Below are positions 31,602 to 53,110 of a DNA stretch of 54,189 nucleotides, in pieces. The stretch lies in NCBI RefSeq assembly GCF_003334335.1, contig NZ_QOWQ01000032.1, one strand, 5' to 3'. Numbering within the stretch: position 1 is the first letter of the stretch; the number at the start of each line of letters is the position of its first letter. The notes beneath the pieces were generated by a model, which worked only from the letters and a program-made list of their open reading frames with translations, searched no databases and was not told the DNA's origin. Made by a program: the position numbers and the translations under genes. The DNA is from Escherichia coli (GTDB taxonomy: Bacteria; Pseudomonadota; Gammaproteobacteria; Enterobacterales; Enterobacteriaceae).

Positions 31602-32945
31602 TTAAAGCAAACCACAGCGACGTTTACTGCGTTCTTCCGCTTCCTGGTAAAGCTGGAACTCATCCAAAACCGGACAACCCAACGCCTGCTCAAATGCTTC
31701 GCGACTGGCATTACCGTGACTGCGTGTCTGCGTTTCATTACCCAGATTTGACTGGAAGATCCCCGCCGCGCTAACGGGCAAGAAATCTTCATAGGTGATG
31801 GGTTGCGCCACTACCCAACCACGTTCAATTAAGGGCTGTGGATCGTCTCCAGGATGAATCGCCTGACGATGCGCCTCACCCGAAGGCGTCAGACGGTACC
31901 GGAACCATGCCAACCCTTGCTGACGCATTAAAAACTCACTGTCAGGAAAAGTGCGGAAGGTTTCCTGTAAATGCATTTGGTGAGTGAGATTATCCTGCCC
32001 GGTTCCAGCGTTACGCAGAAGATCATCATACAGTTGTCGCCCTTTCGGCGTTAATGCCACGCCACGCTGCTCAATTTCACCAAAGCGCGCGGTATGCGTG
32101 CCCTGTTTCTGCCCCGCAAACAACACCGTCTCTTCCAGTGCTTTAAAGCTGGTCTGGCGTAGTAAAATCGGTACCTCGCGGCGCGGCGGCCCCTCGATGA
32201 GAATTTTGGGTTCAATTCCGCATTCAGGCATCATCGACTGCACCCGGTCAATATCCAGCGTACGTGGCGTCAGGTGGTTGATATGGCATCCAGGAAAACA
32301 GACCACATCAGCAATCAACCGATGTTCGTTGTGCAATGCGCGATAGGTTTCTTCATCTACCGTTGCTGACTGGTGCCAGCGAAACGTTTCCAGGGCTTCC
32401 TGCACAAACTCCTGTGCCTGTGTTTCGTTAAAACCGCCCTGCTGCTCATATTCCTCTAACAGTTGTCGACAACGTGGGGTGAAGATATCGCGCTGACGCA
32501 GAATCTCCGCCGCTTTCTGGCGCAAAATTTCGTTCTCGATAAGCTCAAGGCGGAGTAAGGAGGTAAAAACGCGGAAGGGATTACGCGCCAGAGAAGCATC
32601 ATCAATGGGCCGAAATGCTGTCGAATGTACCGGCACCCCTGCCTGCGAGAGATCGTAATAGCTCACCGGGTACATCCCCATAATGGCAAACATCCGCCGA
32701 AGAGTAGCAAGCTCTTGTGCAGTCCCAACGCGAATCGCCCCATGACGTTCAACATTCAGTCGCGCCAGCTCGTCTGCATTTACCATTTTTTCGTGCAGTT
32801 GAGGATTGTTTTCCAGCACAGCCAGATTCACATCAGCTACCAGTTCCAGCAGCGTGCCATATTGCGGAACTTCTTGCTGGTACATGGCTGACATTGCCTG
32901 CGAAAACTGTTCCCGAATCTCATCCGCCGTGATGCTGTTCGCCAT
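31602..32945 (-). CDS. ydcJ: DUF1338 protein (HglS-like 2-oxoadipate dioxygenase/decarboxylase family)
   Basis: 447-aa ORF matching YdcJ. Confidence 0.85.
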   Translation of the reverse strand: MANSITADEIREQFSQAMSAMYQQEVPQYGTLLELVADVNLAVLENNPQLHEKMVNADELARLNVERHGAIRVGTAQELATLRRMFAIMGMYPVSYYDLSQAGVPVHSTAFRPIDDASLARNPFRVFTSLLRLELIENEILRQKAAEILRQRDIFTPRCRQLLEEYEQQGGFNETQAQEFVQEALETFRWHQSATVDEETYRALHNEHRLIADVVCFPGCHINHLTPRTLDIDRVQSMMPECGIEPKILIEGPPRREVPILLRQTSFKALEETVLFAGQKQGTHTARFGEIEQRGVALTPKGRQLYDDLLRNAGTGQDNLTHQMHLQETFRTFPDSEFLMRQQGLAWFRYRLTPSGEAHRQAIHPGDDPQPLIERGWVVAQPITYEDFLPVSAAGIFQSNLGNETQTRSHGNASREAFEQALGCPVLDEFQLYQEAEERSKRRCGLL

Positions 32946-33161
32946 AGTGTCTGCCTCCAGTGGTCAGTAATCTGGAGTGTAGGTAACCGCATTCACTCTT
33001 GCGGGAAGAATTTACAAACTGTGATCTCGCCGCGAAAACATCAATATTATCCATTTTGCTGTAACATAATTGCTTTAATTGTTAATAATATTTTGCAATC
33101 AAGTTATCATAATCAAACAACTTCACTTGTCAGCGACACCGCTTCGTTTTTAACATCGCTT

Positions 33162-34085
33162 ATGGAAAAAAATAGTCTGTTTAGTCAGCGCATCCGTTTG
33201 CGCCACCTTCATACATTCGTAGCTGTCGCACAACAAGGAACTTTGGGGCGCGCGGCTGAAACCCTTAATTTGAGTCAACCTGCGCTCTCTAAGACATTGA
33301 ATGAACTGGAGCAGCTGACTGGCGCTCGCTTGTTTGAGCGTGGTCGTCAGGGGGCGCAACTTACCTTACCCGGCGAACAATTTTTAACGCATGCAGTCAG
33401 AGTTCTTGACGCCATCAACACTGCCGGACGGTCGCTTCATCGTAAAGAAGGTCTTAATAATGATGTCGTCAGGGTTGGTGCACTACCTACTGCGGCACTG
33501 GGGATATTACCTTCGGTTATAGGTCAGTTTCATCAGCAACAAAAAGAGACGACCTTGCAAGTTGCGACAATGAGTAACCCTATGATTCTGGCGGGTTTAA
33601 AAACCGGGGAAATCGATATCGGCATTGGTCGGATGTCAGATCCTGAACTGATGACCGGGCTTAATTACGAACTGCTGTTTCTTGAATCGTTGAAGCTGGT
33701 TGTCCGCCCTAATCACCCGCTACTTCAGGAGAACGTAACGCTAAGCCGGGTGCTGGAATGGCCGGTCGTTGTATCACCAGAAGGCACTGCGCCACGCCAG
33801 CATTCAGATGCATTAGTGCAGAGCCAGGGCTGTAAAATTCCTTCGGGTTGTATCGAAACGCTGTCTGCTTCGCTATCTCGTCAACTTACGGTTGAATACG
33901 ATTACGTGTGGTTTGTCCCTTCTGGCGCTGTAAAAGACGACCTGCGTCATGCCACGCTGGTGGCCCTGCCTGTTCCGGGACATGGTGCAGGCGAACCGAT
34001 TGGAATACTGACCCGCGTAGATGCGACGTTCTCTTCTGGTTGCCAGTTGATGATTAACGCTATTCGAAAATCAATGCCGTTCTGA
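33162..34085 (+). CDS. ydcI: LysR-family transcriptional regulator
   Basis: Track ORF is over-extended by 47 codons. ATG at 33162 gives MEKNSLFSQRIRLRHLHTFVAVAQQGTLGRAAETLNLSQPALSKTL... (LysR HTH), 307 aa. Confidence 0.85.
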   Translation: MEKNSLFSQRIRLRHLHTFVAVAQQGTLGRAAETLNLSQPALSKTLNELEQLTGARLFERGRQGAQLTLPGEQFLTHAVRVLDAINTAGRSLHRKEGLNNDVVRVGALPTAALGILPSVIGQFHQQQKETTLQVATMSNPMILAGLKTGEIDIGIGRMSDPELMTGLNYELLFLESLKLVVRPNHPLLQENVTLSRVLEWPVVVSPEGTAPRQHSDALVQSQGCKIPSGCIETLSASLSRQLTVEYDYVWFVPSGAVKDDLRHATLVALPVPGHGAGEPIGILTRVDATFSSGCQLMINAIRKSMPF

Positions 34086-34092
34086 AAGGTGA

Positions 34093-34116
34093 AGGGATCT
34101 GTCGATCCCTCCTTGA
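34093..34116. terminator. hairpin between convergent ydcI and trg
   Basis: agggatc-tgtc-gatccct inverted repeat. Confidence 0.45.
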
Positions 34117-34122
34117 ACATTT

Positions 34123-35763
34123 TCACACCGTAGCGAAACTAACTGGTTCACCCGCTCCGCGAGGTTCTGCCGACACAGAATGTTTGTGCAGACGGAATAC
34201 ATCCACCGCCTCAGTTAATCGTGCCGCCTGTTCTTCAAGGGACACCGCCGCCGCTGAGGCCTCTTCTACCAGAGAAGCATTCTGTTGCGTCACCTTATCC
34301 ATTTCAGAAATCGCCTGGCTAACCTGCGTTATGCCTCTACTTTGTTCATCCGAGGCGGCGGCGATTTCCTGCATGATATGTGTGACACTCGCGACGGCAT
34401 CAACAATAGTGCTCATGGTTTTCCCGGCCGTTGCCACCTCATCCGACCCCAGGTCAATTAACCTGACTGATTCACTGATCAAGCCTTCAATCTCTTTCGC
34501 CGCCTGAGCGCTGCGACTTGCGAGTGTCCGTACTTCGCTGGCGACAACGGCAAATCCACGCCCTTGCTCACCCGCTCGCGCGGCTTCAACGGCAGCATTC
34601 AGTGCCAGAATATTCGTCTGGAAAGCAATACTGTTGATGACGGCGGTGATCTCAGAAATTTTCTTCGAACTCGTGGAGATAGCGCCCATCGTTTTTACTA
34701 CACCGGAAACCGTCTGCCCGCCATCGCTGGCTTTAATAGAAGCCTCTTGCGCCAGTTTGCTGGCATGATGCGCGTTATCCGCATTCTGTTTCACCGTCGC
34801 AGTGAGTTGCTCCATGCTGGCGGCAGTTTGTTCGATAGCCGCCGCTTGTTCTTCGGTGCGAGATGACAGGTCCGCATTGCCAGCTGAAATTTCGCTGGTG
34901 CCACGATAAATCTCTTCCGCGCCCTGTCGAACAGTCCCTACTGTCATCCCCAGTGAATGCTGCATTTGCTGTAAATGACGACTTAAGCGACCGATTTCAT
35001 TACGACCCGCCGGTTCATCATTCATCGTCAGATCGCCACTGGCGATTTTTTCAATCCGTTGTGCGGCATGTTGCAGTGGACGAATGACGATCCGACGTAG
35101 CACCATAAATGTTATCAGCGTCATGACCAGGGCAAGCACAAACGCGCCAATCATGAACATCCCACCCAGGCGGGTGCGCTGATGGGCCAGTTCCGCCAGT
35201 TGGTTGGCTCTGGTGCTACGTATCTTAACGGCTTTGTTCAAAATATCGGTATAAGCATTATCCAGCGGTCGGATCTGCTCACTTTCATGATTGATAATCG
35301 CTTCAAACATGCCATTTTTGGCATATTTCAACATAGGTTGCATACCCGTGATATAAGCCTGAAAGCGTTGATTTAATTCAGTGTCGAGGGCTTCATCAGC
35401 AGGTGTTTTCACCGGTCGATTCTGATAAGCACGATAACCTTGCTGCGACTGTTTAATCTCCGATTCGGCTTGCGCAATATTTCGCTTCATTGCTTCCATT
35501 TCCGCAATACGACTCGCAGCCCCGGCCTGAATCATATTGATCCGGGCTGAACGCAAAAAATCTGAACTGTTCGCTAACCCGGTCCGAATCTCAATCTCCG
35601 CAGTAACATCACGCTGATCGCGATCGGCCTGCCAGAGGAAATAGCCAGCCAGGGCTGAACTTAATGCGAATAGAACTAAGATACCGCCTAGAATGCAGGC
35701 AAATAACGGAACCAACCTGATGTGATGCAAAAAACCTAATCGCTGTGAGGGAGTTGTATTCAT
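34123..35763 (-). CDS. trg: methyl-accepting chemotaxis protein III (ribose/galactose)
   Basis: 546-aa ORF with two TM segments, HAMP domain and highly conserved MCP signalling domain (methylation sites EEQAAA, QQNA). Confidence 0.9.
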
Positions 35764-50782: not shown

Positions 50783-53089
50783 TCAATACAACTCATCAAG
50801 TTTTCTCATCGCTTGTTCCCGTATTGCGCGCGTCTTACCGTTAAGCGCCAGCTGGCGGACTAAATCCAGTTCAGGGTTAACAAGCTCTAACGCCAGCAAA
50901 GGATCACGTTTCAGCCTCGCCTTTAATACATCAACTGGAAAACGGGGATTATTCATCGCCACAATCCACCACTCGGGATCAATTTCTGCCGCCAGTACTG
51001 CAGGCGGTGTGTGGCGGTTGTTAAGTGCGCCGAACTTGAAAAATGTGAGATTGCTTTTCGCCAGTGTACTCCACCATATACGATCCGGTTGTTTTGCCAG
51101 TACATCCAGTTGTGCTAACGCATCGGGGTCTAGTGCATAATAAACACGTAACGCTTCGTCAACCTGCGCACGGGAACTGTTTTCCTGCCTCAGAAAAAAC
51201 TTCGCCCAAATATCATTGCGTGGCGTGTTTTGCTGTAATTCCTTGAGAACAACAGCGGGTAAATTATCCCAACTAATTAATGCACTCTCTAAAAAGTCCC
51301 AGTCGTCCGAACGTATCAGGGCGGTGGCATTTAATAGCATCTGGTCATCAACTTCGCCGTGGCTAATCAGCTCAGACAAAATCATATCAGCGCTGGTTTC
51401 ATATGCATCTGAATCTGCTTTCGGATTATTTTTCCGATGCGATAAAGCACGTTGCCAAATTTTTTGTTTCATCGACGTGCTCAGATACTGATTTTTCGCC
51501 AGATTACTCCACCCTTCAGGATCGTTGAAACGTGTCAATAACCGTTGTAAAGCAGCGTCAGAGTGAATTACCTGCATATCCCGACAGCAAAAGTAGGCCG
51601 GGGATTTTTTCTCCATCCTTTTAACAAAATTAAACTGTAAGTTATCTGGCAATGCTAAAAATAACACACGTATTAGATCATCGTCATTCTCGAATTTTTG
51701 GTATAAATAGCCTGCAACTTTGTCACTCTCTTGTGGCGTCATCCGCAACAATTGACCATGGTGTTTCATCTCTGCCAGCTTGAACGCTAAGCTTGTGACA
51801 ACATTGTTTGATGAATCGTTCGCCAACTGCATTGCCTGATTGTAGGTGAGTTGTCCTCCAGCACCGACCTGACGAATAGAGGAATCATCACTGCGGATAT
51901 AGCCATCAATAATGGATTCAGGCAATAACCACGCATCTTTATAAAGCTCCTGAATGATCATATCCCAATCTCTTTTCGCCAGAGTCATGACGATATCCAG
52001 AGGGAGATTTTCACGTAGCGCAAGATTCAACGGACCGACACCATCAGGTAGACGACTCATTCGCGTCATTATTTCGACAGAGAGCGGTTCACGGTCGAGC
52101 AACCCCAGAACAACAGGCTGGTAACCCAATTGCTGATCGGTCAACTCCAGAATCTCATTGTCAGGCATATATCTCGCCATACTTTCAATCGTTTGTTCAT
52201 CATTGCTATTAATAAGTTGTTTGCGTAGGTTAGCTGAAATTCCTTTAAGCCTTGGGAGAGTTCGCATTACGGCAAGATCAAATGTCGCAATGTCTCGTCC
52301 TTCAAATGCAGCAACTTTGCCTTCATCCAGCATTTGCAATTCTTGCACTAACTCAGGAGAAGGCTTAGGGCGAAACAGCGCTTCTTTTTTCATCTGATTA
52401 CAGACATTCCCTGCCATGCGAATATTGCTTCGCTTAAAAATTTCTTTCAGAGCATCTTCATCATTAATTAGCCCCCAATAATATGCATCAGGATTTATTA
52501 TCATCAGCGCTTTTTTGACATTTTCAGTGTCATGTTTGTCACTCGCACGGACCATGAATTCACTATTTGTCGAAGACGCAACAACAGGTGCAATTATGTC
52601 ATTGATAAATATCCCACGCGCATTAATACTCCCCTTAATCGTAGACGGATTATCGTAATATGAGTCGATAAATACCAGTCCACTTGCATTTATCGAACCG
52701 GTAATTAACAGTGGTGAATCCGCAACTATATTCGTTGCCGTCACGTTACCGAGAATAACCCATGGATTAGAAAGAGAGAAAGTGGAAATATTACCTTTGA
52801 CTGTCAAATTCCCAAGAACAATCAATTTTTGATTACTCTCTATATTACCTTCTACCACTAAATCGCCACGATGCACTTTCCAGTTCGATGCAGATAAACC
52901 GAAGGGGACAAGATTCACGCTACTGTTGATAGCTTGTTCAACTTGTTGTTTATCTTCAGCGGTAGCCGCAGAAAAAAATGATTCAATATCAACTGCATTT
53001 GCAACACATCGAAGTTCCGCCTGTACTGGTAGACTCAGCATAAACAGGGGCAGTAAACGTATCCAGCCGCAATTCCTGGCCTTAAACAT
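50783..53089 (-). CDS. ydbD: large secreted protein of unknown function
   Basis: ATG at 53087-53089 gives MFKARNCGWIRLLPLFMLSLPVQA (signal peptide), 768 aa. Confidence 0.85.
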   Translation of the reverse strand: MFKARNCGWIRLLPLFMLSLPVQAELRCVANAVDIESFFSAATAEDKQQVEQAINSSVNLVPFGLSASNWKVHRGDLVVEGNIESNQKLIVLGNLTVKGNISTFSLSNPWVILGNVTATNIVADSPLLITGSINASGLVFIDSYYDNPSTIKGSINARGIFINDIIAPVVASSTNSEFMVRASDKHDTENVKKALMIINPDAYYWGLINDEDALKEIFKRSNIRMAGNVCNQMKKEALFRPKPSPELVQELQMLDEGKVAAFEGRDIATFDLAVMRTLPRLKGISANLRKQLINSNDEQTIESMARYMPDNEILELTDQQLGYQPVVLGLLDREPLSVEIMTRMSRLPDGVGPLNLALRENLPLDIVMTLAKRDWDMIIQELYKDAWLLPESIIDGYIRSDDSSIRQVGAGGQLTYNQAMQLANDSSNNVVTSLAFKLAEMKHHGQLLRMTPQESDKVAGYLYQKFENDDDLIRVLFLALPDNLQFNFVKRMEKKSPAYFCCRDMQVIHSDAALQRLLTRFNDPEGWSNLAKNQYLSTSMKQKIWQRALSHRKNNPKADSDAYETSADMILSELISHGEVDDQMLLNATALIRSDDWDFLESALISWDNLPAVVLKELQQNTPRNDIWAKFFLRQENSSRAQVDEALRVYYALDPDALAQLDVLAKQPDRIWWSTLAKSNLTFFKFGALNNRHTPPAVLAAEIDPEWWIVAMNNPRFPVDVLKARLKRDPLLALELVNPELDLVRQLALNGKTRAIREQAMRKLDELY

Positions 53090-53110
53090 ATGCACTCCAT
53101 GCCATTAAAA

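Follow-up and report, generated by a model that had tools for sequence, protein, structure and literature searches.

The Escherichia coli genes ydcI and ydcJ, which encode a LysR-type regulator and an enzyme of the HglS (DUF1338) family, respectively, stand back to back in a 54,189-nucleotide stretch of contig NZ_QOWQ01000032.1 (RefSeq assembly GCF_003334335.1), the whole of which is hereafter called the window; ydcJ (hglS) occupies positions 31602-32945 on the minus strand (an open reading frame (ORF) of 447 amino acids), ydcI occupies positions 33162-34085 on the plus strand (a LysR-type ORF of 307 amino acids with the conserved start MEKNSLF), and a spacer of 216 bp (32946-33161) lies between them. 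An earlier note on this DNA had described the pair as the classic arrangement of a LysR regulator and its divergent target. The gene identities that it gave agree with the ORFs and with RefSeq, Pfam and NCBIfam, and the divergent orientation and the length of the spacer are confirmed by the ORF coordinates and the spacer sequence; a divergent neighbour and a short shared spacer are therefore present. As a description of regulation in E. coli, however, the phrase is not supported, since YdcI is, as judged from its sequence, of the PcaQ lineage, its partners in other genomes are pcaHG, quiA and a pcaK-like gene, and the box in the spacer is degenerate. The divergent layout of E. coli is most likely the scar of a deletion that removed the genes pcaH and pcaG, together with a palindromic box, from between ydcI and ydcJ. 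The account as a whole, in which ydcJ encodes an HglS, YdcI is a PcaQ-type protein, the spacer is a deletion scar and E. coli is left with an orphaned regulator, is one that we regard as moderately probable; it removes a tempting assumption about the regulation of ydcJ that is probably wrong for E. coli.

Lineage and conserved partners of YdcI

YdcI is composed of an N-terminal HTH_1 and a C-terminal LysR_substrate domain (Pfam), and its top NCBIfam family is TIGR02424, the "pca operon transcription factor PcaQ", which it matches over its full length with 287 bits, the runner-up family scoring 136 bits. On the same model the PcaQ protein of R. solanacearum scores 314 bits and four enterobacterial YdcI orthologues encoded beside pcaHG score 297, 284, 276 and 240 bits, so that E. 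coli YdcI is as PcaQ-like as the pca-linked copies. When plasmids and chromids were searched by tblastn, the YdcI matches outside the Enterobacterales were almost all annotated as PcaQ, with identities of 48% in Ralstonia, 39-43% in Cupriavidus and Burkholderia, 38% in Pseudomonas and 35-37% in rhizobia. The pcaQ gene of R. solanacearum and its pcaHG genes are transcribed divergently, and on a Pantoea plasmid the order pcaH-pcaG-LysR, with a LysR protein 50% identical to YdcI, is found within a complete pca cluster. A search for YdcI protein homologues returned only relatives of at least 85% identity and gave no distant context. On its sequence, YdcI takes its place among the LysR regulators of PcaQ lineage, a placement that is new here; the literature search found no paper naming ydcI together with pcaQ.

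PcaQ, the activator of pca genes in Sinorhizobium, Agrobacterium and Ralstonia and by far the best family match for YdcI, is induced by beta-carboxy-cis,cis-muconate and gamma-carboxymuconolactone. Unlike PcaQ, E. coli YdcI has no pcaHG neighbour, and its published targets are transporters, gltA and iraP. Chromatin immunoprecipitation with exonuclease digestion (ChIP-exo) located 18 YdcI sites, with gltA repressed and nhaA, dtpA, lldP and gltP activated (Gao et al. 2018). The gene iraP is an agreed target, and ydcI alleles arose together with rho R109H in a 900-day starvation evolution; ydcI has further been tied to persistence (HipQ), to acetate adaptation in chemostats, and to gadBC expression and acid survival. 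Loss-of-function alleles of ydcI recur in E. coli evolution and persistence studies; the PcaQ placement and the 15-bp box described below would provide concrete candidate ligands and a way to predict the direct targets of YdcI.

The conserved partners of ydcI were followed in a comparative set of 80 Enterobacterales loci, obtained by scanning one genome per species. In about 74 of the 80, ydcJ has an orthologue of ydcI upstream, on the opposite strand; the two genes are directly divergent in 44 of these 74, their starts being 213-379 bp apart, and the remaining 30 have 1.2-5.7 kb of other genes in between. At 21 of the 80 loci the gap holds pcaH and pcaG, the genes of protocatechuate 3,4-dioxygenase, transcribed in the order pcaH, pcaG, ydcI, with ydcJ divergent from pcaH; these loci belong to Klebsiella, Raoultella, Kluyvera, Buttiauxella, Pseudocitrobacter, Franconibacter, Citrobacter sedlakii, a Cedecea and others, and both inserted genes exceed their NCBIfam cut-offs. 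The gene quiA, encoding a pyrroloquinoline quinone (PQQ)-dependent quinate/shikimate dehydrogenase, adjoins ydcI in 24 loci, and the gap of the Pantoea varia locus (L081) contains the gene of a PcaK-like aromatic-acid transporter. Such protocatechuate-pathway neighbours of the orthologues are absent from beside E. coli ydcI. Other fillings of the gap are a family II pyrophosphatase gene in the C. freundii group, this gene plus pcaGH in C. sedlakii, whose relatives keep the pyrophosphatase gene only, and a 5.7-kb block encoding cytochrome bd-like and short-chain dehydrogenase/reductase (SDR) proteins. Between pairs of loci, PcaH and PcaG diverge in step with YdcI and YdcJ (Pearson r = 0.76-0.83, compared with 0.88 for YdcI versus YdcJ), as co-inheritance predicts. 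In E. coli itself, pcaHG was not found in 5422 of 5426 genomes; the four exceptions, JME64-67 (NZ_CP042843-CP042846), have a pcaH elsewhere on the chromosome, with about 70% identity to that of Klebsiella, and are probably engineered strains (host field "not applicable").

In other bacteria, hglS is accompanied by a regulator of another kind. The hglS of alpha- and beta-proteobacterial replicons is part of operons that also encode a pyridoxal phosphate (PLP) aminotransferase, a flavin adenine dinucleotide (FAD)-dependent oxidoreductase and often an aldehyde dehydrogenase; aminotransferase and D-2-hydroxyglutarate dehydrogenase genes were found beside it in Ralstonia, Variovorax, Agrobacterium, Paracoccus, Aureimonas and Methylobacterium. 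A LysR gene adjoins hglS in five of the eight alpha- and beta-proteobacterial cases examined, those of Ralstonia, Azospirillum, Paracoccus, Aureimonas and Methylobacterium, and is usually divergent from it, which is the very layout that the earlier note envisaged. These five LysR proteins are GcvA-like and mutually 41-63% identical over their full length; their resemblance to YdcI, at 30-39% identity, is confined to 56-146 residues of the helix-turn-helix (HTH) region, and for this reason YdcI was rejected as their orthologue. A regulator with a divergent hglS is thus a real layout for hglS generally, but YdcI is not that regulator, since the hglS-linked LysR proteins form a different, GcvA-like family that is unrelated to it.

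A palindromic box and the two blocks of the spacer

All 21 spacers between pcaH and ydcJ carry, upstream of pcaH, the palindrome ATAAC(C)-N3-5-(G)GTTAT, a T-N11-A box, at 35-61 nt upstream of the ATCACA of the ydcJ-proximal control region (block B, described below). A conserved promoter-like stretch follows on the pcaH side, and this promoter and the box can be aligned across Klebsiella, Kluyvera, Buttiauxella, Cedecea and Franconibacter. The box resembles the PcaQ site of S. meliloti, ATAaccgggggatTAT (quoted in PMC5002191), and agrees with the verbal description of the YdcI motif by Gao 2018. It is kept at the same distance, about 125 nt ahead of the start codon of ydcJ, in 20 of the 44 directly divergent loci, though pcaHG and the pcaH promoter are gone from them; a box retained without pcaHG is as expected after deletion. 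In all, 41 loci other than that of K-12 have a good box. Among the same 44 loci it is not kept in Escherichia, Salmonella, Citrobacter, the Enterobacter cloacae group and others, and the K-12 position homologous to the pcaH box holds decayed sequence only.

A weight matrix was derived from 35 distinct boxes and scanned over E. coli K-12 loci fetched by coordinate. The promoter of gltP contains, at -219, ATAACAAATGGTTAT with 19.8 bits, and also a second box with 11.6 bits; it is followed by the promoters of dtpA (ATAACCTTTCTTTAT, 12.8 bits), iraP (ATAACTTTTATTTAT, 12.5 bits), lldP (ATAACATTTAGTTAA, 11.5 bits), gltA/sdhC (ATGACGCGCAGTTAT, 10.7 bits), yobA (ATAACCTTGTCTAAT, 9.8 bits) and nhaA (TTAAGCTATGATTAT, 8.0 bits). 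At six of these seven loci the locus-wide top match falls within the promoter named by Gao et al., nhaA being the exception; five of the first six regions reach at least 10.5 bits, whereas none of 2000 dinucleotide shuffles reaches five regions, and the matches number six in 3,010 promoter positions versus three in 84,574 others (Fisher P = 1.3e-7). Indirect as it is, this is good evidence that the YdcI of E. coli would read the same box as precedes pcaH in its relatives.

The spacer of K-12 gives a different picture, as its best match to the matrix, the weak half-palindrome ATAATATTTTGCAAT at 33085-33099, scores 6.1 bits and is not significant when compared with shuffles (P = 0.11). This site lies not upstream of block B of ydcJ but in the ydcI promoter, between the -35 and -10 elements, and in 18 of 71 orthologous loci the corresponding bases are ATAATATTTTGCTAT, which scores 11.6 bits; the K-12 site is a candidate autoregulatory site, at which binding would repress ydcI. 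The best match in the 54-kb window is a strong palindrome, ATTACCTTCGGTTAT (33506-33520; 15.3 bits), located 345 bp inside the coding sequence of ydcI over codons 115-120 (ILPSVI). It is kept in 10 of 71 orthologues (Escherichia, Buttiauxella, some Cedecea and one Mangrovibacter), for which reason it was rejected as a conserved autoregulatory site and may be a chance or lineage-specific occurrence. The second-best palindrome of the window, ATAGCATCTGGTCAT (51334-51348; 10.6 bits), is found inside a 770-amino-acid ORF on the minus strand (50783-53095).

An alignment of the spacer from 22 genera resolves two conserved blocks with unalignable sequence in between. Block A, the ydcI-proximal one, spans about 86 bp (33076-33161, plus strand) and comprises the promoter and 5' leader of ydcI; block B, the ydcJ-proximal control region, spans about 81 bp (32946-33026, minus strand) and reads GATCACA-N6-AAATTCTTCC, then CTACACT, then CACTGGAGG-N9-ATG. 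In the loci interrupted by other genes, block A remains with ydcI and block B with ydcJ, and block B accompanies ydcJ even where ydcI is 1.2-5.7 kb off or not found within 6 kb; as the blocks part with their own genes, each gene carries its own control region.

Block A contains a pattern match to a ydcI promoter, TTAATA-17-TATCAT (33082-33110, plus strand), which was also named by RpoD SELEX (systematic evolution of ligands by exponential enrichment; PMC3946193). The same source gives CTGACA-16-TATGAT (33106-33133, minus strand), a leftward promoter-like pattern with 10 of 12 matches, as the promoter of ydcJ, and marks an H-NS site in the ydcI-ydcJ spacer. That this leftward element is the main ydcJ promoter is doubtful; because it lies in block A it is cut off from ydcJ, by 1.2-5.7 kb, in 30 of the 74 loci, whereas block B is always with ydcJ. 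The -10 hexamers TATCAT (plus strand, ydcI) and TATGAT (minus strand, leftward) overlap on opposite strands at 33106-33111, so that polymerase at one promoter would exclude the other. The ydcI leader of about 45 nt (CTTGTCA...GTTTTTAACAT; 33117-33161) is nearly invariant among genera and may carry translational control under acid stress; under severe acid stress, YdcI has been reported to be controlled at the level of translation and not of mRNA (PMC10746267). At the upstream edge of block B, GATCACA is invariant in the Enterobacteriaceae, and two Pantoea loci (L080 and L081) have the perfect palindrome ATCAC-N6-GTGAT at its position, which may be a site for some other regulator of ydcJ. As a binding site for CRP, GATCACA was rejected, there being one half-site only, with the other half not conserved.

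YdcJ, its candidate signals and a proposed deletion

The assignment of YdcJ to the HglS/DUF1338 family, proposed in the earlier note, is borne out: the protein matches the Pfam family HGLS (PF07063) at E = 1.6e-161 over model positions 1-386 of 386 and, with 743 bits, passes the cut-off of 550 bits of the NCBIfam equivalog NF049974 (HglS). It is 59% identical over its full length to P. putida HglS (6w1g), and H68, R72, H224, E290, V391 and S392 of YdcJ are invariant in the alignment of the two; these residues correspond to the His-His-Glu metal triad, the specificity arginine (Arg74 of HglS) and Val402/Ser403 of the substrate loop, whose roles were defined by Thompson et al. (PMC7286885). A near-identical Shigella protein is present in the Protein Data Bank (2RJB), with the same fold, metal site and arginine as HglS (Thompson et al. 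2020, PMC7286885). In vitro, 2-oxoadipate is turned into 2-hydroxyglutarate by the purified YdcJ of E. coli (Thompson et al. 2020, PMC7286885, Supplementary Fig. 5a); the activity on 2-oxoadipate suggested by the note is thus correct and already published, and the enzyme assay proposed there has already been done. A true and complete HglS, YdcJ is an enzyme that depends on Fe(II) and O2 and forms D-2-hydroxyglutarate from 2-oxoadipate.

P. putida HglS (PP_5260), the DUF1338 synthase that makes D-2-hydroxyglutarate from 2-oxoadipate (Thompson 2019, 2020), shares with YdcJ this full-length identity, the same residues and the same in vitro reaction. The genomic settings differ: in P. putida, as in the alpha- and beta-proteobacterial replicons, hglS adjoins the genes of an aminotransferase, an FAD-dependent D-2-hydroxyglutarate dehydrogenase and often an aldehyde dehydrogenase, whereas the ydcJ of E. 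coli has no such company between ydcI and opgD, and the 2-aminoadipate catabolism genes (aminotransferase and D-2-hydroxyglutarate dehydrogenase) are absent from beside it. In E. coli no route to 2-oxoadipate is known (PMC7286885), and whether YdcJ serves a further lysine route or some other use of 2-oxoadipate was left open by Thompson et al. 2020 (PMC7286885). The known route of lysine degradation in E. coli, the CsiD/LhgO (GlaH/LhgD) glutarate route as cited by Thompson 2020 (PMC7286885), likewise belongs to stationary phase and leads from a lysine-derived C5/C6 acid to 2-hydroxyglutarate; it differs from YdcJ in its enzyme family, its substrate (glutarate), its product (L-2-hydroxyglutarate) and its unlinked locus. 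For the timing of HglS production in E. coli, stationary-phase and Csr control seem to be better leads than YdcI.

Within block B, the motif CTACACT (32976-32982, minus strand) appears as (T)CTAC(A/G)CT at almost every locus and agrees with KCTAYRCT, the sigma-S consensus for the -10 element, which makes it a candidate sigma-S-type -10 element of ydcJ. At the transition of O157 to stationary phase, ydcJ has been reported to rise 3.64-fold and ydcI 3.35-fold. Closer to the gene lies an inverted repeat, CTCCAG-N11-CTGGAG (32954-32977, minus strand), whose 3' arm is the ydcJ Shine-Dalgarno sequence (CTGGAGG), and it could be argued that ydcJ is set mainly after transcription start, by a hairpin or by CsrA over the Shine-Dalgarno sequence, YdcI being irrelevant to ydcJ. 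The repeat is conserved across genera together with the Shine-Dalgarno region (CACTGGAGG), the hairpin is seen in the minimum-energy fold, and ydcJ is among the genes most strongly affected by the removal of CsrB and CsrC (PMC5389547); the Shine-Dalgarno region may be a target of CsrA. The fold is, however, no more stable than those of shuffled sequences (z-score -0.56), substitutions in Kluyvera break three of its pairs with no compensation, the ydcJ leader has no match in Rfam, and the 5' arm would remain untranscribed if CTACACT is the -10 element. An RNA structure in the leader is on these grounds unsupported, and as a main explanation post-transcriptional control is doubtful; being compatible with either account of transcription, it adds to them and does not compete.

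In the deletion account, which we prefer, the ancestor of the Enterobacteriaceae would have had pcaH, pcaG and ydcI in a row (ydcI <- pcaG <- pcaH), then the box, then ydcJ pointing away (-> ydcJ), with the ancestral YdcI acting at the box before pcaHG and possibly also on ydcJ. The element recognised by YdcI would be the ATAAC-N5-GTTAT palindrome (the T-N11-A box). In the Escherichia lineage, pcaHG would have been deleted along with the box, after which 216 bp would have separated the divergent genes ydcI and ydcJ; ydcI would have kept block A, with its promoter, its leader and a weak autoregulatory half-site, and ydcJ would have kept block B, with the sigma-S-like -10 element, the Shine-Dalgarno region and a possible CsrA target. 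The YdcI of E. coli would then be an orphaned regulator that acts at boxes elsewhere (gltP, dtpA, iraP, lldP, gltA/sdhC and yobA), and ydcJ would probably be driven mainly by stationary-phase and Csr signals and not by YdcI. Both the direction of this evolution and the release of E. coli ydcJ from control by YdcI are what we infer. A bolder form of the account, to which we give rather less than even credence, would make YdcI an orphaned PcaQ descendant that reads a PcaQ-type palindrome and senses a muconate- or tricarboxylate-like acid, its regulon (gltA, gltP, dtpA, lldP and iraP) being a rewired remnant and the ancestral unit having co-regulated pcaHG and hglS from one box. If true, this would hint at an unrecognised link between aromatic-acid and 2-oxoadipate catabolism in enteric bacteria.

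Several points weigh against the deletion account. The 287 bits of YdcI fall just under the curated PcaQ cut-off of TIGR02424 (303.8 bits), although this cut-off does not part pca-linked from unlinked proteins, because the orthologues that adjoin pcaHG also score below it. The enterobacterial order pcaH-pcaG-ydcI, all on one strand, differs from the classical PcaQ layout, in which pcaQ is divergent from pcaDCHGB. The polarity of the change, ancestral presence followed by loss, is drawn from parsimony and correlated divergence and not from a dated tree. The retention of the box in the direct loci of about 20 other genera makes YdcI control of ydcJ plausible in the box-keeping genera, and perhaps ydcJ belongs to the YdcI regulon there and, residually, in E. 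coli; the co-induction of ydcI and ydcJ in O157 points in the same direction. The main texts of the YdcI papers do not name ydcJ, but the peak list or the delta-ydcI RNA-seq table of Gao 2018 may include a peak in the spacer or a change in ydcJ; among the papers found to name ydcJ, none deals with YdcI. Finally, the sigma-S and CsrA assignments are suggested by pattern matches and two mentions in the literature.

Control of ydcJ by YdcI, the reading closest to that of the earlier note, would have YdcI bind the 216-bp spacer, repress itself and activate or repress ydcJ, the signal being 2-oxoadipate, D-2-hydroxyglutarate or a related acid. The layout is divergent in 44 of the 74 informative loci, the weak box at 33085-33099 overlaps both of the predicted back-to-back promoters, the strong box lies 345 bp inside ydcI, a good box stands upstream of ydcJ in the 20 direct loci, and all of this, like the co-induction at the stationary-phase transition and the LysR regulator with which hglS clusters elsewhere are typically paired, is in keeping with such control. 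It is nevertheless unlikely, given that the K-12 spacer has no significant box, that the main texts on YdcI give other targets and never ydcJ, that the hglS-linked LysR proteins elsewhere are of a different family, that YdcI itself appears PcaQ-type with aromatic-acid genes as its conserved partners, and that blocks A and B behave as independent units.

The reverse order of events, in which pcaHG was inserted into an originally divergent ydcI-ydcJ pair, so that the E. coli layout would be ancestral and YdcI would have gained pcaHG secondarily, is decidedly improbable, for although 44 of 74 loci are direct and the gap genes that differ by lineage (pcaHG, pyrophosphatase, pcaK-like, cytochrome bd-like/SDR block) would mark the spacer as an insertion hot spot, the closest outside relatives of YdcI are PcaQ proteins already adjoining pcaHG, the pcaH-side promoter and box can be aligned across five genera, the divergence of PcaH/PcaG tracks that of YdcI/YdcJ, 20 direct loci retain the box without pcaHG, and C. 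sedlakii has the pyrophosphatase gene together with pcaGH where its relatives have the former only.

Annotation and neighbouring genes

As a genome feature, the ydcI-ydcJ locus is ordinary, and its annotation already exists. It shares 100% identity with the sequence of E. coli K-12 MG1655, and 5418 of the 5426 complete E. coli genomes contain it; RefSeq names the ydcJ product "2-oxoadipate dioxygenase/decarboxylase HglS" and that of ydcI a LysR protein, and in K-12 the pair is flanked by ydcH and opgD on the ydcJ side and by trg on the other (RefSeq). The ORF listing also offers a longer reading frame for ydcI, of 354 amino acids from a GTG at 33021, and an annotation of this length occurs in one public protein cluster (P0001, E. 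coli B7A). This start was rejected and is probably a mis-call, because in the 22-genus alignment the extension traverses block A, which is conserved and non-coding.

Most Enterobacterales have a carboxylesterase-like gene of about 505-550 amino acids directly after ydcJ (loci L016-L081, at about 7380-11000), and many have, further downstream of ydcJ, a divergent pair that encodes a GcvA-like LysR protein and a YbdL-like aminotransferase. All three genes are lost in Escherichia, so that ydcJ abuts opgD. The downstream GcvA-like LysR and aminotransferase of Enterobacter were rejected as equivalents of the hglS-cluster proteins, with identities of 32-34% and 23-30%, respectively, and a YbdL-like aminotransferase.

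In E. coli strain WEM25 (NZ_CP061530.1, 2009946-2013063), the match to the locus is split in two, about 317 bases are extra and two annotations of the hglS type are present, which suggests an insertion in, or disruption of, ydcJ. On the other side of the pair, the stop codons of the convergent genes ydcI and trg are 37 bp apart (window positions 34085-34123), and the trg-ydcI pair has been listed among the overlapping-transcription "excludons" (PMC12288877). Beyond trg, the K-12 chromosome carries the type I toxin gene hokB, the small protein gene yncP, cybB and a frameshifted gap (gapC) pseudogene (locus L001, 10121-10801; RefSeq).

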